A stretch of 32,000 bases of DNA from NCBI RefSeq assembly GCF_003966895.1, contig NZ_AP018449.1, forward strand, positions 37,424 through 69,423, written 5' to 3'. A program made the position numbers and the translations under genes. Below are positions 3,620-30,430 of this stretch, piece by piece. The notes beneath the pieces were generated by a model, which did no database searches, was not told the origin of the DNA, and saw nothing but the letters and a program-made list of their open reading frames with translations. Source of the DNA: Methylomusa anaerophila. GTDB lineage: Bacteria > Bacillota > Negativicutes > Sporomusales > Sporomusaceae. The number at the start of each line of letters is the position of its first letter. Within the stretch, counting starts at the first letter, position 1.

Positions 3620-3622
3620 AAT

Positions 3623-5977: not shown

Positions 5978-6073
5978 TTTCATCACCTCTTTTTTATTTT
6001 GCCATTGGCGATTATGAGCGAGCACTAAGCAATCCTGTTGCTCGTTTGTTATCACCTCATCCTCCTGCGCATC

Positions 6074-10600: not shown

Positions 10601-10685
10601 AGCTGTAAACACCGAGCACGACAAACAGCAGGACAATCATGGTTATACCGACCGGGCGCTGAATGGAAAAACGGGTAATATTCAT
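7632..10685 (-). CDS. RND efflux transporter permease, AcrB/HAE1-like
   Basis: 1017 aa with 12-TM RND architecture. N-terminus MNITRFSIQRPV and TM4 motif GILVDDAIVVLEN (adjacent Asp-Asp as in AcrB). The start overlaps the adaptor stop (ATGA at 10682..10685). Confidence 0.93.
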   Translation of the reverse strand: MNITRFSIQRPVGITMIVLLFVVLGVYSYFRIGVELLPTYNYPYCAVSVEYPGASVEEVEQAVVKPLEQAISSAAHLKKMIAVCRQERATLMIEFDFDANADLAAVDVSKLVNRVRRELPDDIGEPVIMRRDPSATPIMEIAVKSKYSLADIYGKADQVFKERLERAEGVSDVVVGGGRDREVAVDVHRDKLAQYRLALSRIVSRIKGENIMLPAGIIYTDKLEKDVRLVARYQTPEEIRNIYVAGPAGNEIPLSALADVEERDSRAKRFSKVNGEDAISLQVFKNSDANIVNTVTGVKKQLATLRTEYPEYQFLIVANDADYIENSLKNTLATLVEGICTTGLVLYLFLRGWRSTAAVMVAIPTSLIATFLIMYAAGFTFNMMSLMGMTLCIGILVDDAIVVLENIHRHMRLGKPPAVAAEEGRNEIGMAAVAITLCDVVVFLPIAFMTDITGQYFRQFGLTIVFATLFSLFISFTLTPMLTARLFKNGVPEPSGRLWNFMEALEAQMVCRYETMLRWSLANGKKVIAAVLVLFIAAVGLIPAGIIGAEFMPRTDENGIRISVEMPVGSTADRTYAVVEQMEQHVLTIPEVIHCLSYVGEGGGNRGRLTVQLVSKNKRERSVWQITEGIRGYVRRHVTDGSVRVYETEASVAGVATGGVDEYTPVLIYLYCADLEVLKQAAARAQTLMSKVEGVKDARHSFKEGVPEYKLTVDRERMRVFHTALSDINDAFGGAISGKKAGVLAGDSLNNGLDTDIIVRLQGSDNFKAADIQAIPVVSGNGTVFLGDVAQIQEGVGPVGITRVNKQRTIIMQAGVAGRPLKEVLSDIDKTFKEEKLPEGVTYQFSGQATAMANGYRQLGQALVLSLLLVYLLLAVLYESAFTPVIRMFSLPLGLIGSLLFLLLTNNTINLYSLIGILVMDGLVAKNGTLLLDYTLTLMDRGLNAYDALIEAGKTRLKPIFMTTLTMVVGMLPTALSLTEGAEIRVSMAWVLIGGLITSTFFTLIVIPIVFLYHKNR

Positions 10686-11965
10686 ATGCCTGTTCCTGCC
10701 TTGTCCTTTGACCCGGTTTTCGCTTTTTGTTCCACTTCAACCTGCATGTCCTGCTTCAGCCGGGATACATTGCTGCCGGCAACAAGTTCCCCCGCCTTTA
10801 CGCCCTCCAGTATTTCCACAGCTTCATCATTGGCAAGCCCCAGCCTTACCTGTCGCTGCTCAGCCTGCTTGTTCTCATGAATTACAAATACATACTTCTT
10901 ACCGTTTTTGTCCAGTACCGCCTCCTTGGATACAAATATGGTTTTAGGTTTAAGCAATATTTCAGCATTGGCATGGGCAAACATGCCGCCTTTAATCAGC
11001 AAGTCTCCCTGCAATAAGAGTATCCTCACCGTAAAGGCTTGCGTTTTTTCATTGCTGACCGGACTAATATAGGTTATTTTTCCCGGATAGCTTTTCCCCA
11101 GCGAATCGACCGTTACCGGCAGTTCCATGCCGGTAACGAGATAAGCCGCATTTTGTTCCGCTACCTGGCAGTCAATATATATGCTGCTGTTGTCAACAAC
11201 GGTGAGCAGTTTCTGCCCGTCCTGCACTAAGGCGCCGGCCTCCGCCTGCCGGTAACCGATAATGCCGTTCCTGGGCGCCCGCAGGACCATGTCCTCCCGC
11301 TGTTGTTTATAGGCTTCCAGCATGTATTCGGCCCGGGCGGCAGCCGCCTGCCTGGTTTCCAGCACAGCCGGCGCTCCCTGAGTCATCGCCTGTTCCTTAA
11401 GAGTATCCAACGCTGCCTTGGCATTAACCAATTGCTGCCGGGCGGTGTCCAAATTCTCGCGGGAGACTGCGCCGGCAGCATGCAGCGATTCATAACGCCG
11501 CAGGTTATCCAGGTTTCGCTGATAGTCGGCTTCCGCCTTGCGATAGTTGGCGTCAAAAGCCGCCTTTGTTTCCACGCTTTCAGCCCGTGCCAGCCGCATG
11601 GATTCGCCGGACTGGGCAATAATTAGGTCAATATCCCGCGTATCCTGTATAATCAGGACCTGACCGGCTTCCACCCGCTGCCCCAGTTCAACAGTCACCT
11701 GAACAATGCGTCCGGTATATTTGGCCGCGATGTCCACCTGGGCTGCCGGTACTGTCTGCCCGCTCAATACAATCCGCTTCACCATATCCCGCTTTTGTAC
11801 GGTTTCCACGGCAACCAGCGGTTTAATGGCGGCAGCCTTGCCGGCGTTGCCTGACTTGCCGCCAAAACCTTTCATATACCCCCATATGCCGGAAACAATA
11901 AGCGCCAAAGCGACAACTCCGCCCAAAAGCCATATTTTTTTTGTTAACCGGATCTTTCTAATCAA
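10682..11965 (-). CDS. RND efflux periplasmic adaptor (membrane fusion protein, HlyD family)
   Basis: 427 aa with an N-terminal membrane anchor, a coiled-coil hairpin region (AEADYQRNLDNLRRYESL...ARQQLVNAKAALDTLKEQ) and beta-barrel segments. TTG start at 11965. Translationally coupled to the RND permease. Confidence 0.88.
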   Translation of the reverse strand: MIRKIRLTKKIWLLGGVVALALIVSGIWGYMKGFGGKSGNAGKAAAIKPLVAVETVQKRDMVKRIVLSGQTVPAAQVDIAAKYTGRIVQVTVELGQRVEAGQVLIIQDTRDIDLIIAQSGESMRLARAESVETKAAFDANYRKAEADYQRNLDNLRRYESLHAAGAVSRENLDTARQQLVNAKAALDTLKEQAMTQGAPAVLETRQAAAARAEYMLEAYKQQREDMVLRAPRNGIIGYRQAEAGALVQDGQKLLTVVDNSSIYIDCQVAEQNAAYLVTGMELPVTVDSLGKSYPGKITYISPVSNEKTQAFTVRILLLQGDLLIKGGMFAHANAEILLKPKTIFVSKEAVLDKNGKKYVFVIHENKQAEQRQVRLGLANDEAVEILEGVKAGELVAGSNVSRLKQDMQVEVEQKAKTGSKDKAGTGI

Positions 11966-12011: not shown

Positions 12012-13682
12012 CTACTGCAGAATATGCAGGCGGTGCTGCCCTGTTACCGTATCTCCCTTCATGCGGATGGGAGCCTCGCAACCGGCAATCGTTGTGCCGT
12101 CGGCGGCGATATCCGCCACTGACGCTACCCCTTCCACCGGATAGAACCAAGCGAGACTATCCGGGCCTTCGGCCCTAAGATCAAAACAATAGATGCCCGC
12201 CCGGCTGTTGCTTTGGCTGATATAATTATGATACACGGCGGCTACCATAAACCGGTTGTCGGCGGAAAAACGCACCTTCCCCACGCCGCCTTCGGTTTGC
12301 CAGCGCCACAACAACTCCCCGTTTTTATTGTAAGAAAATAACGTGGCCGAGTCGGGATGAAGGAATGGCGGCGCACTGGCGGCCGTCTTATCGGCAACAA
12401 AGGTGTTGCTGGTCATGAAATAAAGCTTCCCTTCATCGGTAACACGCGCCGCACTGCCTGACGCATATACCGGCACGCCGCCTACCGCATGCACCTTGCT
12501 GACCTGCCTGATCCATTCAGGTTCCATAGCCTGACCTGTTTCCGCCATATTTACTTTGCCCAGATCAAACAGCATGGCCTGATTATCACTGGCGAAAATG
12601 GCCAGGTATCTGCCGTTGGCGGAAATGTCGATCCCCTCATGAATGCCCACCCAGGCAAAATAGGGGTTAATGACACTGGCCTGAAAGAATGCCGCCATCT
12701 TTCCGGTTCCGCCGTTCAAAACGCGAATGCCGCCATCCGGATATTTTTCCGCCGGACTCCAGGATTGATTACCAAACGCCACCTTTTCCCCGTCAGCGGA
12801 TACCACAATTTTGGACACCCCGGTATCCATCGTTTCATTCTCCGGATACCGCCAGCGTTTCTGTCCTGTTTTTATATCAAAAGCGATAATCACGCTTTGG
12901 GTTGGATAAAGAATAAGCGAGCGTTCGCCGTTTTTTTCCACAACCCGCTGCCGGTGTTGTCCGGCGGCAATCACCGCATCGCCGTTGACCACCAGTGAAC
13001 GAACATTGGGCCGGTTGCTCCACTGGGCGCTCATGCCCTTGCCAATGTCGGCGGCAAACGCGTAATCCCAGAGGATTTTTCCTGTGAGGCGGTCAAAGGC
13101 ATACAACTTGCCGTCAGAACTTGACTCTCCCGCCAAAACAATGCTCCCGTCGGCGGAAAAGGCGACGCTGACAGGCATGCCGCTGGGAACCCGGTAATCC
13201 CAGATTTTTTTTCCGCTGCGGTCAAATAAGTACACCGTATGATCAAAAGACGCCACCGCCACAAATTGTCCGTCCGGCGCTACCGCCACACCCTCATTGA
13301 CTTCCACCGCCCACTGGTTGATGGTCGGCATTGCCTCCAGTTCGCCGGTGGGAACGACGGCGCTGAGCCAGGCTGCCGGTTTTCCCGGCGCCGCCGAGTT
13401 CCATTTTTCCTTGTCAAAAATTACCTGATAATTGTCGCCGGCCTGCCAGTTTAGCGGTAAAAGAACGGTATTTTTCCCCATACTGCGGGCGCTAACCGCC
13501 TGGTCTTGCTCATTGACCCGGATGTGCACCTCAGCTACGGCCGCCTCACGCCCGCTTTTCACAATGATGCCATTCTTGGTGAAGAACCCCTGTACTCCGG
13601 AGTTTTCCGTTTTATTCAAGCAGCCTGTTGTGGCAAGCAAAACAACGAGCGCCAGCCAGCCAGCCAAAATTTTGTTGTCCAT
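12012..13682 (-). CDS. Lipoprotein with PQQ-like beta-propeller repeats (BamB-like fold), paralogue 1
   Basis: Signal peptide plus lipobox (LLATTGC). Repeats of the type DGKLYAFDRLTGKILWDY and HTVYLFDRSGKKIWDY. About 45-50% identical by eye to 23866..25551, and both end HRLHILQ. Start uncertain: ATG 13682 is preferred over GTG 13703, which lies inside the GGAGGTG motif. Confidence 0.85.
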   Translation of the reverse strand: MDNKILAGWLALVVLLATTGCLNKTENSGVQGFFTKNGIIVKSGREAAVAEVHIRVNEQDQAVSARSMGKNTVLLPLNWQAGDNYQVIFDKEKWNSAAPGKPAAWLSAVVPTGELEAMPTINQWAVEVNEGVAVAPDGQFVAVASFDHTVYLFDRSGKKIWDYRVPSGMPVSVAFSADGSIVLAGESSSDGKLYAFDRLTGKILWDYAFAADIGKGMSAQWSNRPNVRSLVVNGDAVIAAGQHRQRVVEKNGERSLILYPTQSVIIAFDIKTGQKRWRYPENETMDTGVSKIVVSADGEKVAFGNQSWSPAEKYPDGGIRVLNGGTGKMAAFFQASVINPYFAWVGIHEGIDISANGRYLAIFASDNQAMLFDLGKVNMAETGQAMEPEWIRQVSKVHAVGGVPVYASGSAARVTDEGKLYFMTSNTFVADKTAASAPPFLHPDSATLFSYNKNGELLWRWQTEGGVGKVRFSADNRFMVAAVYHNYISQSNSRAGIYCFDLRAEGPDSLAWFYPVEGVASVADIAADGTTIAGCEAPIRMKGDTVTGQHRLHILQ

Positions 13683-13724
13683 AATTCGTTTCGTGGTCGT
13701 CACCTCCGCTGTTTATATACCTAT

Positions 13725-14543: not shown

Positions 14544-15142
14544 TTAGAATTTATAGCTGTACTCCAGGAAGGCGCTGCGGGTCGGCGCCAGGTAGTAGGA
14601 CCAGTATCTGCGGTTAAATAAATTATCAATGCTTAAAGAAACGGTAGAATGTTTATCCGGCAAATAAGATATTTTCATATCCACCAGGAAGACCGGATCA
14701 TACGAACCGTATTGGCCGGTTTTCACTCCGTCCTCTTTTGTGTCGCTGATTCTGCGTCCGCTGATGCTGCCCAGCCACTTTTGGCTTTTGTAGTCGAACC
14801 CGACGTTAAGCATGCATTTGGGAATATCGTCCATCTGTCGGCCGATAACGGCCGCCGGATTTTTGCTTTCGGTTATTCGGGCGTCGGTGTACGTATAATT
14901 AATAAAGCTGGTCCAATTTTTGCTCAATTGCTTATTTAATCCGATTTCAAAGCCTTTCATTACCGCTTTGTCCGCATTGCTCTGCCTGGATTCCGTAGTT
15001 ATGCCGGGTATGGTTCCGATATTGGGAACATAGCCGTCGGTCACGGCATATTTCATGGTGGTAATGGCATCCTCTAACTGCGTATAGAAATAGGACACGT
15101 TGAATAAGGTTTTGGAATCCAAACGGTAATCCAGGTTCAAAT
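14544..15142 (-). pseudogene. TonB-dependent receptor, C-terminal fragment (last ~199 codons) cut off by the transposon
   Basis: The ORF-track 203-aa product ends in the canonical barrel terminus ...AFLEYSYKF. It has no signal peptide or plug. The frame joins exactly to 18227..19739 once the element and one TSD copy are removed. Confidence 0.9.
15137..15142. repeat. Target-site duplication, left copy (TCAAAT)
   Basis: The identical hexamer TCAAAT directly abuts both element termini (15137..15142 and 18227..18232). The flanking bases differ, so the duplication is exactly 6 bp. Confidence 0.85.
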
Positions 15143-15167
15143 TGTTAGCTTGCAAAAAATCTAATCC
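15143..15167 (+). repeat. Left terminal inverted repeat
   Basis: TGTTAGCTTGCAAAAAATCTAATCC compared with the reverse complement of the right end, TGTTAATTTGCAAAATAAATCATCC: 19 of 25 positions match. Confidence 0.8.
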
Positions 15168-15209
15168 TTGGCCGGGGAAAATATTGCAGAATCATACGGA
15201 CGAAGCGTT

Positions 15210-15238
15210 TTTTCAGATCCGTTCCAATTTGCTATAAT
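15210..15238 (+). promoter_or_regulatory. Possible promoter for the transposon genes
   Basis: TTTTCA (15210..15215), a 17-nt spacer, then TATAAT (15233..15238), just inside the left end and upstream of the first gene. Confidence 0.35.
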
Positions 15239-15274
15239 ATATTGCACATTACAACAGCAACGGGAGCGGATTTT

Positions 15275-15853
15275 TTGCAGATTCTGATTACAGTTAAAGA
15301 AACTATTACGCAATACATTACCCGATTTCAGGCATTAGAAATTGTTCGACCGGAAAAGTGTCCCGTCTGCGGAGCCGTTCACTCGATTCATCGGCATGGC
15401 AGCTATTGGCGCAATATCTTGAATGAGCAATGGGAAAAACGGATTCCGGTAGCCAGGTTCTACTGCAAAACGTGCAAACTGACGATATCGATGCTGCCTT
15501 CCTTTGCACTGCCCTATTTCCAGTATTCACTGGAGTTCATTGTGACCGCGTTGCAACAAATCTTTCTTGCCAAGGCAACCACGTCAAGAATTTGTTCAGC
15601 CCTACTGCGCTTTTATCGAAGACGATTCCATGGCAACTTGCTATTTCTGGAGATGTTTTTCCGCGACCAGGGCTGGCCTGAAGTCACTCCGCAAGATGTA
15701 AAAGAAAAAGCCACAAAAATGGTTTGTATGTTAACTGTCCCCACAGCCGAAACCCTTTCGCAAAGGTTTCATCAACACTACAAACATACTTTTATGGCAC
15801 ATTCATTGTACCATAGGTTCTATCTGAGCGTAAACCAGTGCGTTCCCACATAA
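15275..15853 (+). CDS. Zinc-ribbon accessory protein of the transposon (CxxC...CxxC; DUF6431-like)
   Basis: Contains CPVCGAVHSIHRHGSYWRN...RFYCKTCKLTISMLPSFALPYFQYS. Start taken as TTG 15275 (GGAGCGGA upstream); the ORF track gives TTG 15242. The family name comes from memory of the motif pattern, not from a search. Confidence 0.65.
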   Translation: MQILITVKETITQYITRFQALEIVRPEKCPVCGAVHSIHRHGSYWRNILNEQWEKRIPVARFYCKTCKLTISMLPSFALPYFQYSLEFIVTALQQIFLAKATTSRICSALLRFYRRRFHGNLLFLEMFFRDQGWPEVTPQDVKEKATKMVCMLTVPTAETLSQRFHQHYKHTFMAHSLYHRFYLSVNQCVPT

Positions 15854-15944
15854 CTTTTCGCTGGCGAAGGTCAGAAAGTTGCGGTATGATGGCTTTTGTA
15901 CAAGGTTAGCCGGCTAGCCTCCCCATTTACCGGAGGTGTGTTCA

Positions 15945-17228
15945 TTGACAAATGAAGATCGCGAGCAAGTCGCTCTATTTCGTTATGGGCTGATCGCCCC
16001 GCTTTTGAATGATCAAGTCGATTCTAAACAAGACTACCTGTCCGAAATCTGCGCCAAGTTCCATGAGGTCCCCTATTATGGCCGCAAAGAATTTGCACCG
16101 AAAACTCTGGAGGGCTGGCTCCGCGATTATCGCCGCGGCGGATTTGTGGCCTTAAAACCCAAAGGCCGTTCTGACCGCGGGAGAAGCCGGGTGATCTCAC
16201 CAGAGCTAAAGGAGCAGATTATTGCTTCGCGTCAGAAAAACAGGGAGCTTTCTGTTGTGCTGTTTTATGAAAAGCTGGTTAAGAACACGGTGTTGGCTCC
16301 TGACAAAGTGTCTTACCACAGCGTTTACCGGCTCTTAAAATCACAACAGCTTTTATGGCCGGAGGAGAAAGCATTAAAGGAACGCAAACGCTTTAGTTAT
16401 GATAAGGTGAATATTCTGTGGCAGGGCGATATGTCCATTGGCCCTTACCTTACGATTGGCGGCAAGAAGCTCAAAACTCATTTGTTCGCCTTTATTGACG
16501 ACTGCTCCCGGCTGGTTCCTTTTGCTCAGTTCTCGTTTACGGAGAAGTTTAGTCCCATGAAAGCGGTGCTCAAAGAGTCCATTCTCCGCCGGGGTGTCCC
16601 GAAGATGATTTATGTTGACAACGGCAAGGTGTATCATGCCAGGGAGCTTCATTTAGCTTGCGCCGCTCTTGGTATTACGCTGACTCATACTCAGCCTTAT
16701 GATCCGCAGAGCAAAGGAAAAATTGAGCGTTTTTTCGGCACAGTGCGCCGTCGTTTTTACCCGCTCCTTGCCAACAATATGCCTAAATCCCTGGATGATT
16801 TAAATGCTCAGTTTTGGAAGTGGCTGGAGAGCGATTACAATCGCAAACCGCATTCCGCACTGGACATGTCTCCTTTTGACTTATTTTTGTCACAGCCGTC
16901 TTCTGTCCGATTATATACGGATCCCTATGCTTTGGAACGACTCTTTTTTAAGCGGGAATACCGTAAGGTGAAGCACGACGCAACGATCACGCTGTCAAAC
17001 CGTTTGTTTGAAGTCCCGGCCAAGCTAGTCGGGCAACGGATTGAAGTACGCTATGATCCGGAGTCGCCCGAGCAAGTCTATATCTATGACAATGACATCC
17101 AGGTAGGTGTGGCTGCGCCGGTATCGTTTCGGGACAACTCCCAAGTCAAACGGGAACGCAGGGACTTTCCCAAAGAGACTGCGATTTCTTTTGGCAGTTT
17201 ACTGGCCTGCCAAAAGGAGGATGTGTGA
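15945..17228 (+). CDS. DDE transposase (rve integrase core plus Mu-transposase-like C-terminal domain)
   Basis: Catalytic triad contexts are LWQGDMS, IYVDNGKVY and SKGKIERFF. N-terminal HTH-like REQVALFRYGLIAPLL and a C-terminal beta-barrel region ATITLSNRLFEVPAKLVGQRIEVRYDP. Start TTG 15945 lies 8 nt after GGAGG; the ORF-track GTG 15936 overlaps the RBS. Confidence 0.9.
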   Translation: MTNEDREQVALFRYGLIAPLLNDQVDSKQDYLSEICAKFHEVPYYGRKEFAPKTLEGWLRDYRRGGFVALKPKGRSDRGRSRVISPELKEQIIASRQKNRELSVVLFYEKLVKNTVLAPDKVSYHSVYRLLKSQQLLWPEEKALKERKRFSYDKVNILWQGDMSIGPYLTIGGKKLKTHLFAFIDDCSRLVPFAQFSFTEKFSPMKAVLKESILRRGVPKMIYVDNGKVYHARELHLACAALGITLTHTQPYDPQSKGKIERFFGTVRRRFYPLLANNMPKSLDDLNAQFWKWLESDYNRKPHSALDMSPFDLFLSQPSSVRLYTDPYALERLFFKREYRKVKHDATITLSNRLFEVPAKLVGQRIEVRYDPESPEQVYIYDNDIQVGVAAPVSFRDNSQVKRERRDFPKETAISFGSLLACQKEDV

Positions 17229-18028
17229 TGTTCCAATCCTTTTATTCTCTCTCGTCGGTGCCCTTTCGCAAAGAGCTTGAAACCAAACACTTCTTTTCCT
17301 CGCAAGGATTCTCCGAAGGCACGGCCAGACTGGAATATTTAAAGTCGACTCGCGGTATGGGCGTTGTGATTGGCGAGGCTGGCGCAGGAAAAACTTCGCT
17401 GATGAGAAATTTCGCTGCCTCGCTCAATCCTTCGTTGTTTAAGGCCATCTACTTTCCCTTGTCTACTGTCACCGTATCTGACTTTTACAGGGGGTTGACC
17501 GTAGGGTTAGGACAGGAGCCGAAGTTTCGCAAGGTCGACCTGTTTGCTCAAATCCAGCAGGCCACGCTTCATCTGTTTCACAACCAAAAGATGACACCGG
17601 TTTTCATTCTGGATGAGATGCAAATGGTCTCCAATCAGTTTTTAAACGACATTAGCTTGTTGTTCAATTTTGCGATGGATTCTGCCAATCCGTTTATACT
17701 GATTATGGTTGGCCTTCCTCATTTTATGGAACGGTTACGGTTAAGTCACAATCAGCCCCTGGCCCAACGGGTGGTGATGCGTTATCAGATGAATTCCCTT
17801 TCGAAAGATGAGGTCAGGCACTACATCCTGCATCAGCTTAAGTTGGCTGGCGCTCTTCATGATATTTTTTCTCCCCAGGCCATTGAGGCCATTACTTCAC
17901 GTTCTCGTGGGTTTCCTCGCTTGATTAACAATCTGGCAACCAATTGCTTGCTTTACGGCTGTGCCAAAAAACTTGAATTAATTGATGACGAGGCCGTTTT
18001 CGCAGTCGCTTCGGAATCCGGATTGTGA
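17228..18028 (+). CDS. AAA+ ATPase transposition helper (ExeA/TniB/TnsC-like)
   Basis: Walker A GEAGAGKTS and Walker B PVFILDEMQ. The ATG overlaps the transposase stop (GTGTGATG) and GGAGG lies 7 nt upstream. Confidence 0.88.
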   Translation: MFQSFYSLSSVPFRKELETKHFFSSQGFSEGTARLEYLKSTRGMGVVIGEAGAGKTSLMRNFAASLNPSLFKAIYFPLSTVTVSDFYRGLTVGLGQEPKFRKVDLFAQIQQATLHLFHNQKMTPVFILDEMQMVSNQFLNDISLLFNFAMDSANPFILIMVGLPHFMERLRLSHNQPLAQRVVMRYQMNSLSKDEVRHYILHQLKLAGALHDIFSPQAIEAITSRSRGFPRLINNLATNCLLYGCAKKLELIDDEAVFAVASESGL

Positions 18029-18045
18029 TTTTACTTCTCTATTTT

Positions 18046-18075
18046 CCCGCAACCACGTTGTTGCGGGCTTTTTTC
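18046..18075 (+). terminator. Rho-independent terminator of the transposon operon
   Basis: CCCGCAAC (18046..18053), loop CACGTT, GTTGCGGG (18060..18067), then CTTTTTTC. It lies 18 nt after the ATPase stop. Confidence 0.8.
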
Positions 18076-18201
18076 TGCGGATGAATGAATGGGCAAACTC
18101 ACGTTGTATCAATTTGCAAAACCGCTTTTTGCTCTGCTGCATGATTCCTCTTGGTTTGTAAATTAGACCAAATTTCCGGCTCTTTTATTCTGCTATATCA
18201 C

Positions 18202-18226
18202 GGATGATTTATTTTGCAAATTAACA
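18202..18226 (+). repeat. Right terminal inverted repeat
   Basis: GGATGATTTATTTTGCAAATTAACA, the reverse complement partner of 15143..15167 (19/25). Confidence 0.8.
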
Positions 18227-18232
18227 TCAAAT
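18227..18232. repeat. Target-site duplication, right copy (TCAAAT)
   Basis: See the left copy at 15137..15142. Confidence 0.85.
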
Positions 18233-19739
18233 CATAGGAAGTGCTTTTTTCCGGCTTCAAATTGATATTGGACGTCGTTATATCCGTCGTAGTGGTTTGA
18301 GAAGACCGATACAACTCATAGAATGAGGGGGTGCGAAACCCCTGGCCGACATTAAATTTCCAGGTCGCTTTCTCGTTGGCCTTATACACCATACCGATTC
18401 TGCCGCTGAAATTGCTTTCCTCCCTGTCGCCATACTGGCTGAAAACCGGAGGGGAGGCGGAAGTTCGCCGGAAGCTGTTCCAACCGCCGGTGGTTTCCCA
18501 TCTAACATATCTGCCGCCGATAAAGGTGGTGAATTTATCATTGAATTTGTGCTCGTCCTGGAAATAGAAGGAATCACTCCTGGTTTTGCCGCCGGATTTC
18601 CGGTCTATCTGGTCTTCAGGCTTAACGAAACTCCAGGTGTGTTCCGGATAAAATCTCCTCAATTCCCGTTCATCATACGCCGTCCCTTGTTCGCTGCGCA
18701 GGGAATACCCCAGGGTAAGCAAATTCTTCCGGTCCACTTGCCAGTTCACATGCATATCCCCGTCAGTGGTTTCAAAATAATTTAACTGATGCATGAGATT
18801 TTGCGTCTGGACGGTGCCGCTCCAACCGCTGTAATACCAGTTGTCGGTCTTTTTCTCGCCCCAGGTGATTTGATAATCCACCTTGTCATTTACTTTTCTC
18901 TGATAATCCAGATTAAGGCCTTTGCTCACTTTGTCGGCCTGATCCGTTCCCAGTTCGTATTTATACGAACTATTGCCCCTGTAGCTGTTGACAGACAGCT
19001 TACTATCCTTATCCCAGCGGTAGATCAGTTTGCCGCTGTAATGCTCCTGCCCGCCGCTTTGGTGACCGCGATAATTGGTTTTATCGTCGGGATAAGCGGT
19101 GATAAAACCATCGGAATCAATTTTGGAGTAATCAAAATAATAATCGAGTTTTCCCACCGAGCCGCTGTGGCCGAAGGTCACTTTTCCCGTCCCCTGCGTC
19201 CCGCTCCCCAGCTTCACCACCGTTTCATTGGCGGCCTTGCTTTTGGTAATGATGTTGATGACTCCCGCCTGGGCGCCGGAGCCGAATAATGATGATCCCG
19301 GTCCTTTCACTACTTCGATTCGCTCAATATTCTCTATCGGAATTTGGCTCCAGGTAATCTGACCGTTATAACCGTCATTTTGACTTTGACCATCCACCAG
19401 AACCAAAATGCCCTTAAATTTAAACCCCCGCATAATGACGGTGGGCTCGCTGCTGCTTAGCCCGGTATTGCGCTTGATCATAATGCCGCTGATCCCTTTT
19501 AAGGCATCATCCAAATTTTGCACATTCTTTTTTTCCAGGTCTTCTTTGGTAATTACCTCAACCACCACCGGCACATCTTTTATTTTCTTCTCTGTCCTGG
19601 TTGCCGTAACCACCACTTGATCCAGCTGAAAACCGGGAGCATCCTCCTCTACTTCTTCACCGTAAGCCACCCCCAGGGAAGATAATATTATTCCTGTCGT
19701 CAGAGCTAATACCCAGCCTTTTTTATGGGACGTTTTCAC
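18227..19739 (-). pseudogene. TonB-dependent receptor, N-terminal fragment (504 native codons) truncated by the transposon
   Basis: GTG 19739 has GGAGGAG 7 nt upstream. Signal peptide, then DQVVVTATRTEKKIKDVPVVVEVITKEDLEKKNV and IEVVKGPGSSLFGSGAQAGVINIITK. The ORF-track product ends ...NLKPEKSTSYDL followed by 9 element-encoded residues (MLICKINHP) and a stop inside the right IR (18198). Confidence 0.9.
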
Positions 19740-23865: not shown

Positions 23866-25551
23866 TCACTGCAAAATGTGCAACCGGTGTTCCCCCGTCA
23901 GCGTCCCGTCTTCCCGGCGCAGCGGCGACTCGCTGCCGGCGATCGTCGTGCCGTCCGCGGCAATATTGCCGCAGATCGCAACCCCGCCGGTAGGATAAAA
24001 CCATACCAGCTTATCCGGACCGGCAGCCTGCAGATCTAGGCAGTAAAGTCCGGAACGCTCCTTTTTCCGGGCCACATAATTATGATATATGCCGGCGACC
24101 ATATAGCGGCTGTCGGCGGAAAAACGCGCTTTTCCCAAACCGCCCTCCGTTTGCCACTTCCAGAGAATATTGCCTGAGCGATCATAAGCAAATAGGGTGG
24201 TGGCGTCAGGATGAGTGAAAGATGGCGCTAAAGCAAAGCTCTTATCCGCCATATAAGTTGCCGTTGTCATAAAATAGACCGTACCGTCGTCCCTGACCCG
24301 CGCCACATTGCCGGACGCATACACCGGGACGCCGCTGACCTGGATAATCTTGCTGACCTGATACAACCATACCGGCTTGATGTTGCCGTTCTTTTTGTTA
24401 AGATCAACCTCCGACAAATCAAATAACATGCCCCGGTTGTCGCCGATGAACACGGCTGCATACTTCCCGTTGGGCGACATATTAATGCCTTCATTAATTC
24501 CGACCCATTTGAAGGTAGGCCGGGCCGGCCGCAATGTATAAGCAGCAGCCAGTTCTCCCGTTTTCCCGTTTATGAGCCTGATCACGCCGTCCGGATACTG
24601 CTGGGTGTCAATCGAACCCGGATTAGCATGAATGTAGTTGGCAAAAAGCACTTTCTGCCCATCGGCGGAAACTGAGATCCTGGATATAGTTGTATCCATC
24701 ACCCCGGCTGCCGGATACCGCCAAAGGGTATTGCCGGTAGAGGTGTCAAACGCCATCATAATGCTCTGGGTCGGGTTGGTTACAACCACTTTTTCACCGG
24801 CTTTTTCCACCACCCGCTGCACATACTCGCTGCCGGCCACAATCATGTTGCCGCTGACGGCGAGATTTCTCACCTTGGGCCGGTTGCTGGGATTCCGGTT
24901 TGTCCCTTGTCCAATGATAGGAGAAAAAGAGTACTTCCATAATAAATTTCCCGATAACGTTTCAAAAGCGTAGAGATTGGCGTCGGCGCTGGCCTCGCCT
25001 ATGAACAGTGTCTTACCGTCGTCGGCAAAGACCGCACTGATGGGCGTACCGTTGGGAACGCCGTAATCCCAGAGCTTCTTGCCGGTCCGGTTGTAAACAT
25101 ACACCCGGTTATCATAAGAGGCCAGCGCAATATATTTCCCGTCCGGCGCTACGGCTGCGTCGTCAAATACTGTCGAACCCGATTCATTAATGGTCGGAAA
25201 CTCCTCAAACTCATCGAGCCTGGCCACACCGCCGACCAATATTCCGGGCCGGGCCGGCGCCGCATCCGACCAGGATTTCCCCGCCATTTTCACTTCATAT
25301 CTGGCGCCGGTCCGCCAATTCCCGCCAAAGAGGACGGTACGCTCCCCCAATACTTTTCCTTTATCAGGCTGCACATCGCCATTAATACTCAATTGAATGT
25401 CCGCCGCCGCTACTGTCTTGTCGGCAGTTACCGCCAGGCCGTTTTTGGTGAAGACGGCCTGCAGCCCGCCCGGCAAACCTTGGTCCTTGTCACTGCAGCC
25501 TGCCGTTACTAACATCAGCGCCAATAGCAAGCCGCATATCCATAACCGCAT
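23866..25551 (-). CDS. Lipoprotein with PQQ-like beta-propeller repeats, paralogue 2
   Basis: Lipobox LVTAGC. Repeats NRVYVYNRTGKKLWDY and ANLYAFETLSGNLLWKY. Ends GEHRLHILQ like paralogue 1. AGGAGGAGG lies 5 nt upstream of ATG 25551. Confidence 0.88.
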   Translation of the reverse strand: MRLWICGLLLALMLVTAGCSDKDQGLPGGLQAVFTKNGLAVTADKTVAAADIQLSINGDVQPDKGKVLGERTVLFGGNWRTGARYEVKMAGKSWSDAAPARPGILVGGVARLDEFEEFPTINESGSTVFDDAAVAPDGKYIALASYDNRVYVYNRTGKKLWDYGVPNGTPISAVFADDGKTLFIGEASADANLYAFETLSGNLLWKYSFSPIIGQGTNRNPSNRPKVRNLAVSGNMIVAGSEYVQRVVEKAGEKVVVTNPTQSIMMAFDTSTGNTLWRYPAAGVMDTTISRISVSADGQKVLFANYIHANPGSIDTQQYPDGVIRLINGKTGELAAAYTLRPARPTFKWVGINEGINMSPNGKYAAVFIGDNRGMLFDLSEVDLNKKNGNIKPVWLYQVSKIIQVSGVPVYASGNVARVRDDGTVYFMTTATYMADKSFALAPSFTHPDATTLFAYDRSGNILWKWQTEGGLGKARFSADSRYMVAGIYHNYVARKKERSGLYCLDLQAAGPDKLVWFYPTGGVAICGNIAADGTTIAGSESPLRREDGTLTGEHRLHILQ

Positions 25552-25600
25552 AGCATCCTCCTCCTGCCGGCGATTGCACCGCCCTTCGTCGCTGCTGCCG

Positions 25601-27487
25601 CTAATCCATCGCCGTCCGTTTCAAAGAATCTCCCAACCGGCAGCCTATAGCCGCCCCGATGGCACAGTAGACAAATCCGGCAGCCAGCACCGTCCAAATG
25701 TACCAGTCGGCGTAATACAGCCGGTACAACATCATGTACGCCATCATGCTCATATAGGAGGTAATGATGTCCACCACCCCGCAGACCACAGCCAGAATGA
25801 CAATGCTGAGACGGCTCCGGCAGCCTCTCCCTCTGGTAACGCCGGTAAAGAAGAGACCGGCTTCCAGAAAAACCGCCAAGGCCGCGTACAGCAAAATGTT
25901 CATCGGCGAGAAATGTCCAAAAATAAACCCGTTGAGAATAAACCTGACAACGATCATCAGGCTGACGGCTCCCGGCCTGGGCAGTACAACAGCCAAGGCT
26001 ACCATCAGCGCATACAGGACCGTTTGGCTGAAAAATCCGGTAAACAAAAAACTGAACGGACCAAAAATTACGTGAGCAATATCCATGAGTACCGTTGCCG
26101 GCAGATTAACGGTAACAAAGGTGACCGTTCCGAATAGAGCGACAATAACCATTTCCTTGCTGGACACCCGCCTGAGCGCCGACTCCTGCCGCCAAACAAA
26201 CCAACTGACGCCCAGCACCGCCACCAGCGTCATAAACAGTGTCGCATACAGGGGCTTGTTGTCATGAACGGTCAACGTCACCGGTTGTTTCGACGTGCTT
26301 ACCACCTGACTGACGCCGAATATCCTGGTTTCCGTCTGCAATTCATATTTGCCGGCGACGGCCCTATTTTCATCAAGATAAATGGGAAGAATCACCTGGT
26401 TGCTGGAATGGGCGGGTACGGCCGCTATACCGTAACTATAGCCCAGTCCGCCGTTTTTGTTTTGCGGCGCGGTAAAAGCCGGCGACATCTTGCCCGTAAC
26501 GATATCCGTCATTTTGGCCGTGACCAAGGCTAAAACCTGTTGATCACCGTCGTTGCTGATTCTTATGGCGGCAAAAGTAAGCGGATCTTCATCAAAACGC
26601 CGGTCTTCGCGTTCCCCTGTAAAAAACTGCAACAAACGGCTGGGCGGCTGATAGGCCAGAGCACCCGTCTGAACTTTCGGCTCCAGGCGGCCGGAAGCAT
26701 CCACCGGCAAGTCGACTTTGGCAACCTTGACATTATTGCTGATGTCGGCGAGGGAAGAGATTTGGATTACCGCCTGTTTGTCCCATTCCCGCTGTTCCCG
26801 GCCATTATCCAAATGCAAGCGGGCGGTTATCGTTGCCTTCCGCCCCGCTTCACCGGCTTTTACTTGGATCTGTTCATTCCATATCTCGTTTTCCGCCGTC
26901 AGACTGGCCGGTCCGAGCACATGGTTTACGCCATCGCGCCGTTCCAGTCTCATGACGGGAGGAACGGCTGCCACTTCAAGCTCAGGCGGAATGGAAACAT
27001 CCAAGATCCCGCCAACCTTTTGATCAGCATGATTGGTGATCAGAAGGTTAATGGCAAAAGTACTGCCATTGGTAACCAGACCCACATTTTCCTCGCTGTT
27101 TAGCCCATAGGGAGCTTGCAGAAAAAATGATATTGTCGCCGGCGGCTTGTCCGGGCTCCTGGCAGACAAGCGGATCTTGCCGCCGTCCCGCAGGCAAATC
27201 TCAAACTCATATTCATGCCCCGGCCTCCAGGGAATAAACACTGGGAGGACTTTATGACCGCCTGGTCCCGTATCGCTGGCGATAACCGTTTCCCCCGGCT
27301 TATCCCTGACGCGGATTTGCCTTATTTGCTGCTCCCGGTCAAATGTAATTTCGACTCCCTGCCGGGTAAACTCAATCTGTCCCCCCGGCGCTTCCTGCCC
27401 GGCTCCCAACAGCCGCCAGGCGCCATAGACCAGACCAATGACCAGCAATACGAGGCCAAATTTCTGCAACTTGTTATAGTGGGGCAA
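25601..27487 (-). CDS. 628-aa membrane protein: N-terminal anchor, ~400-aa extracytoplasmic region, C-terminal ~7-TM domain
   Basis: The only possible in-frame start is TTG 27487 (a TAA lies 18 nt upstream in frame). Hydrophobic segments are FGLVLLVIGLVYGAW at the N-terminus and six to seven from residue ~415 to the end. No family is recognised with certainty. Confidence 0.75.
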   Translation of the reverse strand: MPHYNKLQKFGLVLLVIGLVYGAWRLLGAGQEAPGGQIEFTRQGVEITFDREQQIRQIRVRDKPGETVIASDTGPGGHKVLPVFIPWRPGHEYEFEICLRDGGKIRLSARSPDKPPATISFFLQAPYGLNSEENVGLVTNGSTFAINLLITNHADQKVGGILDVSIPPELEVAAVPPVMRLERRDGVNHVLGPASLTAENEIWNEQIQVKAGEAGRKATITARLHLDNGREQREWDKQAVIQISSLADISNNVKVAKVDLPVDASGRLEPKVQTGALAYQPPSRLLQFFTGEREDRRFDEDPLTFAAIRISNDGDQQVLALVTAKMTDIVTGKMSPAFTAPQNKNGGLGYSYGIAAVPAHSSNQVILPIYLDENRAVAGKYELQTETRIFGVSQVVSTSKQPVTLTVHDNKPLYATLFMTLVAVLGVSWFVWRQESALRRVSSKEMVIVALFGTVTFVTVNLPATVLMDIAHVIFGPFSFLFTGFFSQTVLYALMVALAVVLPRPGAVSLMIVVRFILNGFIFGHFSPMNILLYAALAVFLEAGLFFTGVTRGRGCRSRLSIVILAVVCGVVDIITSYMSMMAYMMLYRLYYADWYIWTVLAAGFVYCAIGAAIGCRLGDSLKRTAMD

Positions 27488-27732: not shown

Positions 27733-28476
27733 TCAATCGCGTACATGCAATAAGGTCCAAATCCCCGCCCCGGTCAGAATGACCGCATAGGCGCCCAGGA
27801 CGGCCACCGACGGCCAGGGGGTATGGCCGCCTGCTCCGAGGATGCGCAAGGCATAGGTTGCATGGGTCAGCGGCAAAATTTCAATGATCCACCGCAACAC
27901 AAGGGGAAATTTGTCAACGGTAAAAAAGGTTGCACATAGAAACGACATAGGAAGGAGAAAATAAGTGCTGAAATTCCCCATATCCTCATGGGAATCAATC
28001 ACCATAGCAGCCACAACACCCATGGCGGCAAATAAAGCGCATATCAGCATAAGCACCAATAAAAAACCGGCATGAATTGCAATCGTGGCGCCAAAAAAAT
28101 GCGCCAGCAGGAAGATAACCGCGCAGGATATCATCCCCCGCAAGGTGCCTGCCAATATCTTGCCAATCACAAAGGCTGCCGGACCAACCGGAGCAACCAG
28201 GTATTCCTCAAAGGATTTATGATACAGCCGCATCATATTGAGCGGTGAGGCTACAGAGTTAAAGCTGATATTCATGGCATTCAGGGCCATAATTCCCGGA
28301 ACGATAAAATTAAGATAGCTCCCGCCGTTCATCTGGATGCCGCGGCCAAGTCCCCAGCCGAAAGCTACCAGGTACAATACAGGGGTCACCATCCGCGACA
28401 GGATAAACTTGGTCATGCGGCGGTGCAGCACCAGCCAATCCCGCCAGAATACCGTGTAAATATCGTTGAAGAACAT
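27733..28476 (-). CDS. ABC-2 type transporter permease
   Basis: 247 aa with 6 predicted helices. Paralogue of 13725..14516. The start overlaps the ATPase stop (TAATG at 28474..28478). Confidence 0.9.
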   Translation of the reverse strand: MFFNDIYTVFWRDWLVLHRRMTKFILSRMVTPVLYLVAFGWGLGRGIQMNGGSYLNFIVPGIMALNAMNISFNSVASPLNMMRLYHKSFEEYLVAPVGPAAFVIGKILAGTLRGMISCAVIFLLAHFFGATIAIHAGFLLVLMLICALFAAMGVVAAMVIDSHEDMGNFSTYFLLPMSFLCATFFTVDKFPLVLRWIIEILPLTHATYALRILGAGGHTPWPSVAVLGAYAVILTGAGIWTLLHVRD

Positions 28477-29315
28477 TATCCTGCCACCTTTCGCCCGGTC
28501 AACTCGACAAAAACATCTTCCAGGTTGGACCGGCGTATGACTGTGTCTGCTGTTAAGTTGCCGGCAAAAGCGCCGGCATCGTTCCGGTGGGAGAAGAACC
28601 GGTATTCGGTTACGCCTGTTTCATTCCATTCCACCACATATTCCCCCAGACGCCGGCACAGCTCCACCGGGCTGTCGAGGGCAATCAGCCTGCCTTTGTC
28701 AAGGATGGCCACCCGCTGGCAGAGGTTTTCCGCTTCTTCGATATAATGAGTGGTCAGGAGCACCGTAATGCCATCCCCGTTCAACCGGCGCACCAAATCC
28801 CACAAGCGCCGCCGCACCTGCGGGTCCAAACCGACGGTAGGCTCATCCAGAAACAATATCCGGGGACGGTGCAGGAGGGCTCTGGCAATCATCAGGCGGC
28901 GCTTCATGCCGCCGGAAAATTTTTGCACCATGTCATGGCTCCTGTCAGTCAGTTCCACATACTCCAGCAGTTCATCAATGCGCTTGCGCCGGTCATCACG
29001 CGGCATATGGTGCAAACGGCCATGCAGTTCCAGGTTTTCCCGCGCCGTCAAATCAATGTCCAGATTCAAATGCTGCGGCACCACCCCAATGGTGTTCTTT
29101 ATCTCCAAATCATTGTCCGGCAGTTTCCAGCCATTGATGGTGACCGTTCCGGCAGTCGGCTTGGTCAACATGGTCAAGATGCGGATAGTCGTCGTTTTGC
29201 CCGCACCGTTCGGCCCCAACAGGCCAAACGTTTCCCCTTGTTCAATGTGCAGGCTGAGTTTGTCGACTACGGTGCGCTCCTCAAATTTCTTAACCAGTCC
29301 GTCGATCACGATCAT
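28476..29315 (-). CDS. ABC transporter ATP-binding protein
   Basis: Walker A GPNGAGKTT, signature FSGGMKRR, Walker B ILFLDEPTVGLD. Start ATG 29315 (MIVIDGLVKKF; GGGAGAAG upstream) is preferred over the ORF-track 29333. Confidence 0.9.
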   Translation of the reverse strand: MIVIDGLVKKFEERTVVDKLSLHIEQGETFGLLGPNGAGKTTTIRILTMLTKPTAGTVTINGWKLPDNDLEIKNTIGVVPQHLNLDIDLTARENLELHGRLHHMPRDDRRKRIDELLEYVELTDRSHDMVQKFSGGMKRRLMIARALLHRPRILFLDEPTVGLDPQVRRRLWDLVRRLNGDGITVLLTTHYIEEAENLCQRVAILDKGRLIALDSPVELCRRLGEYVVEWNETGVTEYRFFSHRNDAGAFAGNLTADTVIRRSNLEDVFVELTGRKVAG

Positions 29316-29329
29316 ATACGCTTCTCCCA

Positions 29330-30430
29330 TCATTTATGCCCATGAGCATGCGAATGCGTATGCGTATGTTGGTGGGAATGATCGTGACTATGGGCATGCT
29401 GATGTCCCAGAATTTCCTGTAGTTTTTTCTGCTCCGAACCGATTTCCTGGAAGGGTTTTTTTCGCATACGGTGCATAAGGGCCAACTCGACGACTTCAGA
29501 AACGTCCGAACGTTCAACTTTATCCCGGCCGTTAAGTGCGGCCAAAGCCTTGGCGGCCTTTAGCATCACCAGGTCGGCGCGATGTCCGTCAACTCCCATT
29601 TGAATGGCGATATCGGCAATATTGAACAGCACATCGTCATCATGGCTAACAGCGGCCAACAAGTTTTGCGCCGCTGCTATCTTGTCCCGCAGCTTGCTTT
29701 GTTCTTCTTCCCACTGCGCCGCGAATGCTTCCTGGTTCTCTTCAAAGGCCGTCCGGCGTTTAATGACATCCACGCGTTTGGCGGTGTCGGCAATGCCCTC
29801 AATGGTTACGCACAGCCCGAAGCGGTCCAGGAGCTGCGGTCTCAGCTCGCCTTCTTCCGGGTTCATGGTGCCGACAAGGATAAACTGGGCCGGATGGGAG
29901 AAAGACACGCCTTCCCGTTCGACGGTATTTACCCCCATGGCGGCGGCATCGAGAAGTACGTCAACAATATGATCATCCAGGAGATTGACCTCATCCACAT
30001 AGAGAATTCCCCGGTTGGCCTCAGCCAACACTCCTGGTTCGAATTTTTTCTCGCCGTGTTTAATAGCGTGTTCAATGTCAAGAGTGCCGACAACCCGGTC
30101 TTCAGTCGCCGATACCGGCAAGTTCACCACTTTCATCGGGCGTTTGGACCGCGGCAGTTTTTCGCCTTTTTCAACGCGCTCATGGCACTGCGGACAATAC
30201 ATCAACGGCTGATCGGGATCACAGTGGTAAGGGCAGTCGGCCACCACATCAATTTCCGGCAGCAATTCGGCCAAGGCCCGCACTGCCGTTGATTTGGCGG
30301 TTCCCTTTTCCCCCCGGATCAGGATACCGGACAGGCGCGGATTGATTACATTCAGCATCAAACCTTTTTTCATGCTTTCCTGGCCGACAATGGCTGCAAA
30401 CGGATAGTTCATCGGTTTATGATTATGCAT
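29330..30430 (-). CDS. chlI: ChlI/BchI-like AAA+ chelatase ATPase subunit with C-terminal (HX)11H tail
   Basis: FAAIVGQESMKKGLMLNVINPRLSGILIRGEKGTAKST (Walker A), ILYVDEVNLLDDH (Walker B), FILVGTMNPEEGELRPQLLDRFGL. Ends HQHAHSHDHSHQHTHTHSHAHGHK. AAGAGGAGAG lies 6 nt upstream of ATG 30430. Confidence 0.92.
   Translation of the reverse strand: MHNHKPMNYPFAAIVGQESMKKGLMLNVINPRLSGILIRGEKGTAKSTAVRALAELLPEIDVVADCPYHCDPDQPLMYCPQCHERVEKGEKLPRSKRPMKVVNLPVSATEDRVVGTLDIEHAIKHGEKKFEPGVLAEANRGILYVDEVNLLDDHIVDVLLDAAAMGVNTVEREGVSFSHPAQFILVGTMNPEEGELRPQLLDRFGLCVTIEGIADTAKRVDVIKRRTAFEENQEAFAAQWEEEQSKLRDKIAAAQNLLAAVSHDDDVLFNIADIAIQMGVDGHRADLVMLKAAKALAALNGRDKVERSDVSEVVELALMHRMRKKPFQEIGSEQKKLQEILGHQHAHSHDHSHQHTHTHSHAHGHK

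Follow-up and report, generated by a model that had tools for sequence, protein, structure and literature searches.

A predicted Ig-like N-terminal domain shared by beta-propeller lipoproteins and a membrane protein encoded beside ECF transporter and chelatase genes

Two groups of described uptake systems come closest to a gene cluster that we analysed in a 32,000-nucleotide stretch of DNA (hereafter the window) from Methylomusa anaerophila, a diderm Firmicute of the Sporomusaceae, in which two beta-propeller lipoproteins and a 628-residue membrane protein (M) carry a similar segment at their N-termini. The first group is that of the metal-type energy-coupling factor (ECF) importers CbiMNQO and NikMNQO, which were reportedly described, together with the extra components CbiN and NikK/NikL, by Rodionov et al. 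in 2006 and 2009. CbiM and NikM have an extra N-terminal helix, its N-terminal side outside the cell, before the six-helix core, and the Nik systems have extracytoplasmic accessory proteins. We know of no substrate-capture (S) component with a roughly 380-residue Ig-like ectodomain and a second anchor helix, or with a beta-propeller partner, and none with a large Ig-like ectodomain or propeller pairing surfaced in the literature we searched. The second group comprises the haem and B12 loci of Bacteroidota, namely HmuYRSTUV with the CobN-like de-chelatase HmuS, and BtuB-BtuG with the CobN-like BtuS, in which BtuG is a beta-propeller lipoprotein catching B12 for BtuB (PMC12583661, PMC6460266, PMC6977713). 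In the work on HmuS, the role of many archaeal and anaerobe CobN homologues was called unclear (PMC12583661). We find that the N-terminal segments of the three window proteins are homologous copies of one module, and suggest that M and the propeller lipoprotein (P) act as a pair.

Homologues of M resemble the CbiMNQO and NikMNQO systems in that a fused EcfA-A' ATPase (EcfAA') and a CbiQ-family T component (EcfT) are encoded directly downstream of them, and the membrane domain of M has the predicted size and topology of an S component, a six-helix core preceded, as in CbiM and NikM, by an extra helix whose N-terminal side would lie outside the cell; M differs in having no sequence similarity to any known S-component family. 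With the Bacteroidota loci the window shares the combination of a TonB-dependent receptor, a lipoprotein and a CobN-family protein in one locus. However, the propeller in the window is PQQ/WD40-like by sequence, and homology to BtuG, looked for with the propeller profile against PDB sequences, was not found: the matches were generic WD40 proteins, with no BtuG among the best 60 of 427. HmuY is also missing from the window, and no Rfam family, the cobalamin riboswitch included, reached its gathering score in the window or in the related loci L001, L003 and L004. Where a BtuG-type locus would combine such a riboswitch with a BtuB-type receptor, no riboswitch was detected in the window, and its TonB-dependent receptor gene is present but interrupted. 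Unlike HmuS and BtuS, the 1314-residue CobN protein of the window scores as cobaltochelatase CobN (Pfam CobN-Mg_chel, 1246 bits; NCBIfam CobN equivalog NF004646, 1533 against a cutoff of 1468), lacks a signal peptide on inspection of its sequence and is accompanied by ChlI and ChlD, and import across the inner membrane would here use an ECF transporter.

The initial annotation of this DNA had proposed that all three proteins carry the same N-terminal pattern with the same spacing, followed by unrelated domains. The strings that it quoted are all present in the translations of the three genes (Table 1), and a recount on these translations gave the same distances from F to W (46, 46 and 48 residues). 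Lipoproteins 1 and 2 are full-length paralogues (49% identity). The pairwise BLASTP evidence linking M to them is borderline, its best match falling on the lipoprotein 2 module (E=0.003) and alignments with the lipoprotein 1 module reaching an E of about 1. Homologues were gathered for both families, 12 for the membrane protein and 14 for the lipoprotein, the latter including 572-residue Methanosarcina propeller proteins that share the same N-terminal segment. When 11 membrane-protein modules were compared with 11 propeller-protein modules by hhalign, the probability was 96.5% (P=7.8e-10, 81 columns), and the score of 53.6 lay about 20 standard deviations above that of column-shuffled controls (10.9±2.1, maximum 17.9, n=200); a reversed profile scored 12.8, and the module against the other domains of the partner protein 12–16. 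A hidden Markov model (HMM) built from propeller modules only detected window M at E=2e-13 plus 44 membrane proteins, with zero unrelated open reading frames among 4544 at E<=10, and the reverse test, with membrane-protein modules against propeller proteins, cross-detects as well. A six-frame scan of the window returned exactly three copies (E of 5e-28, 3e-21 and 9e-18), the next best match having E=1.4. The Methanosarcina propeller module, FDWEPNTQYKFEVITGDG...YAPEKP, bridges the two families, the membrane-protein consensus being IKWEPGxKYxFELTLxDG...SPA. Profile comparison and the cross-family HMM, both significant for M, therefore establish that the three modules are homologous at the sequence level, while the domains downstream of them are unrelated, as judged by Pfam and by the control scores for the partner's other domains.

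The module is roughly 85 residues long and is the first extracytoplasmic domain in both host proteins. Modelled alone by AlphaFold2 from 29 aligned sequences, it is all-beta (predicted local distance difference test, pLDDT, 90; predicted template modelling score, pTM, 0.76), and its six DSSP strand segments can be read as seven strands, so that we confidently predict an Ig-like seven-stranded beta-sandwich; the model has the two sheets, ~7 strands and ~80–100 residues of the Ig-like/FN3 fold class. Foldseek against the PDB returned generic sandwiches only (E of at least 1.4e-3, template modelling (TM) score about 0.5–0.65), among them the C-terminal domain of the type IX secretion system (T9SS), CopC, FN3, DUF3244, SoxYZ and an MG domain. 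The likeness to CopC (E=2e-3) might suggest metal binding, an idea that we considered and set aside, as the matches to CopC and SoxYZ were no better than those to FN3. Among 16 module sequences searched against Pfam at E<=10 the best match was DUF4249 (E=9e-4, in 2 of the 16), which we do not consider meaningful, and whole-protein Pfam and NCBIfam scans of the window gave no match over the module region. The module is thus like the FN3, DUF3244, CopC and T9SS sandwiches in strand number and size, and its HMM gives weak partial matches to cadherin and fn3 repeats, but it differs from them by a signature of its own, by the lack of a Pfam match, by a best PDB fold E of only 1.4e-3 and by a near-exclusive tie to two protein architectures. 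It is a new, unnamed sequence family with a common Ig-like fold.

This tie emerged from a search of 1.84 billion representative proteins with the module HMM, in which 67 matches at E<=1e-3 were sorted with HMMs of the downstream domains. Full-length single-copy matches were confined to module plus propeller (about 540–700 residues), module plus membrane domain (573–640 residues) and short fragments. Proteins of up to about 4800 residues with many matching stretches turned out to contain cadherin, fn3 or Flg_new repeats; their scores add up partial matches that fall in the latter half of the profile, a fold-level echo, and we do not count them as members of the family. Three metagenomic proteins without Pfam match, P0049 (405 residues), P0052 (279 residues) and P0063 (792 residues, with an additional C-terminal region of roughly 450 residues), contain 2–4 tandem module-like repeats, each with W...Y...(S/A)P. 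Therefore the family is not absolutely confined to this system, few as its members outside the ECF/CobN context are. Named carriers include Desulfatibacillum, Ca. Oleimmundimicrobium, Dehalococcoidia, Desulfobacteraceae, Methanosarcinales and Ca. Hecatellaceae, and the module-bearing proteins are annotated as hypothetical, 'BamB', 'PQQ-binding-like' or 'dehydrogenase'. With two architectures, no Pfam family and only the three tandem-copy exceptions, specificity of the module for this system, as the initial annotation had it, is essentially established by the profile searches; the segment is not a ubiquitous linker in sequence, even though its predicted fold is that of a generic Ig-like sandwich.

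The same annotation had called the module portable, and this is not supported. In a neighbour-joining tree of 50 membrane-type and 28 propeller-type modules, the two types separate perfectly into two clades, and modules of opposite type taken from one locus (18.8% identity) resemble each other no more closely than those taken from different loci (19.0%). We conclude that the sharing of the module is ancient and vertically inherited and that the module is not a shuffled cassette. Recent duplication or gene conversion between the copies of M and P was considered as well and is rejected by the same two observations.

Loci of this kind were sought across bacteria and archaea with a profile of the M membrane core, using one genome per species. 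The scan gave 216 loci, the best 80 of which were annotated with local HMMs; neighbours were counted for those 69 membrane-protein genes for which 3 kb or more of sequence was available downstream. A propeller gene is present in 63 of these 69 loci, directly adjacent in 37, and M-propeller pairs span at least eight phyla, occurring in Negativicutes, Desulfobacterota, Nitrospirae, Poribacteria, Planctomycetota, Omnitrophota and Methanosarcina; the human-gut genus Phascolarctobacterium is also among the M loci. Apart from the Poribacteria-type group, every locus has ECF genes (EcfAA' or CbiQ), which makes 43/69 loci, with EcfAA' starting at most 300 bp from the end of M in 33/69 and CbiQ lying within 2.5 kb in 41/69. 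Other neighbours are a TonB-dependent receptor (29/69), CobN (23/69, within 10 kb), ChlI/ChlD (22/69) and ABC-2 (13/69), so that M and the propeller form a more constant core than CobN does. No description of this transporter set was found in the literature searched.

Individual loci illustrate the range of arrangements. In Sporomusa carbonis, ExbBD-TonB, a receptor, a 624-residue M homologue, EcfAA', CbiQ, a split CobN, ChlD and ChlI are encoded together. The Methanosarcina mazei locus (L001) contains a ChlID fusion, a module-bearing propeller, a second propeller, CobN, a 524-residue protein, fused EcfAA', CbiQ (EcfT), an ATP-binding cassette (ABC) ATPase and ABC-2, and is in this respect an example of the orphan CobN of methanogens; the neighbouring M and P proteins and their shared domain are not described in the paper that discusses these (PMC12583661). 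The 524-residue protein is a clear M homologue without the module, its signal peptide running straight into an FMIQVPHG motif, and the 506-residue second propeller likewise has no module (the two genes lie at 15655–17229 and 8476–9996 of L001). This locus also holds an S-layer-domain protein and a 197-residue protein without family match. On the near-identical metagenome contig L003 the order is M paralogue, EcfAA', CbiQ, ChlD, ChlI, ABC, ABC-2, the 628-residue protein and lipoprotein 2. The paralogue, P0009, is a 625-residue, module-bearing protein encoded about 5 kb upstream of window M, beyond the window end, and directly before the fused EcfAA' and CbiQ genes (L003 1295–5698). Together with window M and lipoproteins 1 and 2, this makes two M and two propeller copies in one supercluster.

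The full-length AlphaFold2 model of M (pLDDT 76.7) places an anchor helix at residues 5–28, the module at 36–110, further beta-sandwiches at 119–407 and membrane helices from 411 to 626. Foldseek with the whole model retrieved tandem Ig-like assemblies (integrin legs, alpha-2-macroglobulin, transglutaminase, PrgB); the list is dominated by Ig-like domains, and the membrane core is not visible in it. Model and hydropathy agree on a helix at 411–433 followed by six helices between 444 and 619, and K/R-rich loops (436–448 and 547–560) and a K/R-rich C-terminus are consistent with the cytoplasmic side. The predicted topology is therefore that of an S component, a six-helix core with both ends in the cytoplasm, and homologues of M are encoded with EcfA, EcfA' and EcfT, as the counts for EcfAA' and CbiQ given above indicate. 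At the level of sequence, neither the ectodomain nor the membrane core of M has a Pfam or NCBIfam match; among 10 diverse membrane-core members searched against Pfam at E<=10, the only match was ABC_cobalt (E=0.14, one member), and the membrane-core profile had zero matches at E<=10 among all PDB sequences. S families of ECF importers are often undetectable by sequence, and the lack of an S-family match is therefore only weak negative evidence. Judging by gene context and topology alone, M is most likely an ECF S-type substrate-capture component with a large Ig-like ectodomain.

We tentatively favour the reading, to which we would give a little under an even chance, that the shared domain helps to hold the propeller against the ectodomain of this ECF S-like membrane protein at the membrane surface. 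P would be a lipid-anchored beta-propeller, and M, with its Ig-like ectodomain and six-helix core, would act with it as a pair, the core of M serving as the S component of an ECF-type ABC importer with EcfAA' and EcfT. In all three window proteins FT(K/R)xG begins 12–14 residues past the anchor helix or the lipobox cysteine, and the copies would therefore sit at equal height over the membrane, those of M and P next to each other on the external surface of the cytoplasmic membrane. In this arrangement they would hold the propeller against the M ectodomain, by direct contact between the modules or by way of a single shared contact, and cargo caught by the propeller would be handed on to the membrane core of M. 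Such cargo may be a metal or a metal-tetrapyrrole, to be processed afterwards by cytoplasmic CobN-ChlI-ChlD chelatases; it is gene context, namely the genes for these chelatases and for a TonB-dependent receptor nearby, that points to uptake of this kind. The large CobN/ChlH-type, AAA+ and AAA-VWA subunits of a class I ATP-dependent chelatase are all encoded in the window, and in diderms a TonB-dependent receptor is often encoded with the system.

Pairing of M with P is suggested by the same position of the module in both hosts, by the propeller gene in 63/69 M loci and by the correlated presence of the module in the two partners. Where M has the module, P has it in 37 loci and lacks it in 5; where M lacks it, P has it in 3 and lacks it in 21. 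Hence 37 loci have it in both, 21 in neither, and 8 are discordant (in P only: Methanosarcina, L011 and L016; in M only: L032, L055, L062, L063 and L070). The raw Fisher test of this table (p=1e-9) was not accepted as it stands, as only 4–5 independent changes lie beneath it.

Several observations weigh against the reading that we favour. On the membrane-core tree the co-occurrence comes down to these 4–5 inferred changes per character, and one 18-member clade of Negativicutes supplies most of the loci lacking both modules. All four combinations of presence and absence exist, so that direct pairing of the two modules cannot be a strict requirement. The module is moreover the least conserved and fastest-evolving folded part of both proteins: window M and its homologues are 33% identical in the module, 46% in the rest of the ectodomain and 65% in the membrane core, which is the most conserved part of M, and lipoproteins 2 and 1 are 32% identical in the module and 53% in the propeller. 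The contact between M and P is one that we propose from gene neighbourhood and the shared module, the searches by sequence did not link the M core to any known S component, and in the window itself M is flanked by ABC-2 and ATPase genes and not by ECF genes. Finally, the Poribacteria-type loci contain no ECF genes within 10 kb. L034, L039, L042 and about 20 other loci of this type hold a module-bearing M-propeller pair with no ECF genes, CobN or receptor within that distance; either a shared ECF module is encoded elsewhere in these genomes, or the pair functions independently of ECF.

A more modest role, as a passive pedestal, is in our estimation possible though rather doubtful. The module would then be a membrane-proximal spacer lifting the propeller and the M ectodomain, and the likeness of its copies would reflect common descent, not shared binding. 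This accords with a generic Ig-like fold, with the low conservation just described and with a module that is dispensable, since Phascolarctobacterium and Veillonellaceae-type loci do without it in both proteins and Methanosarcina does without it in M; the residues that are invariant across the families (F, W, Y and P) are also of the kind that would usually be found in a sandwich core. A pure spacer would, however, be expected to drift or to be exchanged for another Ig-like domain, whereas the signature FT(R/K)xG ... WxP...Y ... (A/S)PxKP has been kept in both families, in bacteria as well as archaea, and gain or loss of the module tends to coincide in the two partners.

Less likely still is the version given in the initial annotation, in which the modules independently engage one and the same further component. 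This could be a protein, for instance EcfT or one of the two that the annotation named, the ABC-2 permease and the TonB receptor at its periplasmic face, or it could be the transported ligand itself. The same domain in three proteins of one locus would be explained by it, the turn and loop motifs FTRxG, WxP and APxKP would cluster at the membrane-distal end if the predicted strand order is right, and there is the weak Foldseek likeness to copper-binding CopC. None of the candidate partners is a constant neighbour, however. TonB receptors are found in 29/69 loci and are ruled out for Methanosarcina, and ABC-2 is found in 13/69, both less consistently than the propeller (63/69) or the ECF module (43/69); the Poribacteria-type pairs, in turn, have no ECF genes nearby. 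The module, furthermore, has none of the conserved His, Cys or Met typical of metal sites, the CopC match is no better than those to FN3 and other sandwiches, and low conservation, together with loci that have one carrier only, leads us to lean against a conserved ligand pocket on sequence grounds. As for the idea that unrelated beta-rich segments merely look alike by chance or through their composition, to which the weak BLASTP values and the summed partial matches in giant cadherin/fn3 repeat proteins might be thought to point, we reject it as having next to no probability, given the profile-profile P of 8e-10 well clear of the shuffled controls, single-family HMMs that reciprocally cross-detect with zero false matches, and Methanosarcina propeller modules that link the two families.

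In itself the domain adds a modest finding, namely a new sequence family whose fold is common, and its value is that of a marker: it links two uncharacterised proteins whose present annotations are 'hypothetical' for one and 'BamB' or 'PQQ-binding' for the other, and it brings to light a conserved gene pair beside ECF transporter genes in many phyla. A wider proposal, which we regard as unlikely on balance but worth stating, is that M and P are the core of an undescribed class of ECF-type importers, present in at least 216 species-level genomes of bacteria and archaea, in which a membrane-anchored beta-propeller feeds an S-like component with a large Ig-like ectodomain, the module couples the two and a metal or metal-tetrapyrrole is delivered to the orphan CobN-ChlID. 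If true, these chelatases would gain a physiological context for the first time, and M, if truly an S component, would be an exception to the rule by which ECF importers do without capture domains outside the cytoplasm. The M-P neighbourhood also offers a testable entry to the question of what the many CobN homologues do in methanogens and other anaerobes (PMC12583661).

The genes treated here lie on the minus strand of the window (Table 1). The ABC-2 permease and the DrrA-like ATPase that precede M occur as a pair in the Methanosarcina locus too. An insertion of ~3 kb interrupts the gene for the TonB-dependent receptor and encodes, on the plus strand, a DUF6431 protein, an rve/Mu-type transposase and an AAA_22 (TniB-like) ATPase; terminal repeats and target duplications were sought at its ends, and none was convincing. 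The outer-membrane step of this locus has probably been inactivated in this strain.

Table 1. Features of the Methylomusa anaerophila window, in window coordinates
Feature	Position	Strand	Basis or remark
Module copy in M	27140..27382	-	Residues about 36-116; FTRQG ... W87 ... Y93 ... P112-DKPP
Module copy in lipoprotein 2	25237..25464	-	Residues about 30-105; FTKNG ... W79 ... Y85 ... A98-P99-ARP
Module copy in lipoprotein 1	13374..13595	-	Residues about 37-110; E=3e-21
M, 628-aa membrane protein gene, candidate ECF S-type component	25601..27487	-	Translation; no Pfam/NCBIfam match
N-terminal membrane anchor of M, residues 6-29	27401..27472	-	AlphaFold2 helix 5-28; hydrophobic core 6-29
Further all-beta tandem Ig-like ectodomain of M, residues about 119-407	26267..27133	-	AlphaFold2 strand pattern
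Polytopic membrane domain of M, residues 408-628	25604..26266	-	Re-entry helix and predicted six-helix core
Beta-propeller lipoprotein 2 (P) gene	23866..25551	-	Lipobox ...TAGC at Cys19, module, PQQ/WD40-like propeller
Beta-propeller lipoprotein 1 gene	12012..13703	-	Likely start ATG at 13682; lipobox Cys is residue 28 counting from GTG at 13703
ChlD-like AAA-lid+VWA gene	30519 to window end, incomplete	-	Pfam (AAA_lid_2 + VWA)
ChlI-like AAA+ gene	29330-30430	-	Pfam (Mg_chelatase + AAA_lid_2)
DrrA-like ABC ATPase	28476-29333	-	Pfam/NCBIfam; with ABC-2 permease immediately upstream of M
ABC-2 permease	27733-28476	-	Pfam/NCBIfam; between DrrA-like ATPase and M
CobN-family chelatase large subunit, 1314 aa	19825..23769	-	Directly downstream of lipoprotein 2
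TonB-dependent receptor, Plug + N-terminal barrel part	18198-19739	-	Pfam
Insertion in TonB-dependent receptor gene (its genes on the plus strand)	about 15156-18197	+	
TonB-dependent receptor, C-terminal barrel part	14544-15155	-	Pfam
Second ABC-2 permease	between receptor C-terminal part and lipoprotein 1	-	
RND pump (1017 aa) and HlyD-type adaptor	7632-11965	-	
Second CobN, two genes (810 aa and 527 aa)	2036-6055	-	

Beyond lipoprotein 1, a second CobN cluster mixes export machinery into an otherwise uptake-like locus, the RND pump and its HlyD-type adaptor being encoded between lipoprotein 1 and an ABC ATPase/ABC-2 pair. The second CobN of this cluster consists of two tightly spaced genes, and the boundary between them falls at about position 650 of the Pfam model. 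A CobN divided in the same way (781+507, 810+506, 786+516 and 805+456 residues) recurs in Sporomusa carbonis and in several metagenome-assembled genomes of other phyla, and we therefore regard the two-gene form as natural rather than as the product of a frameshift error.

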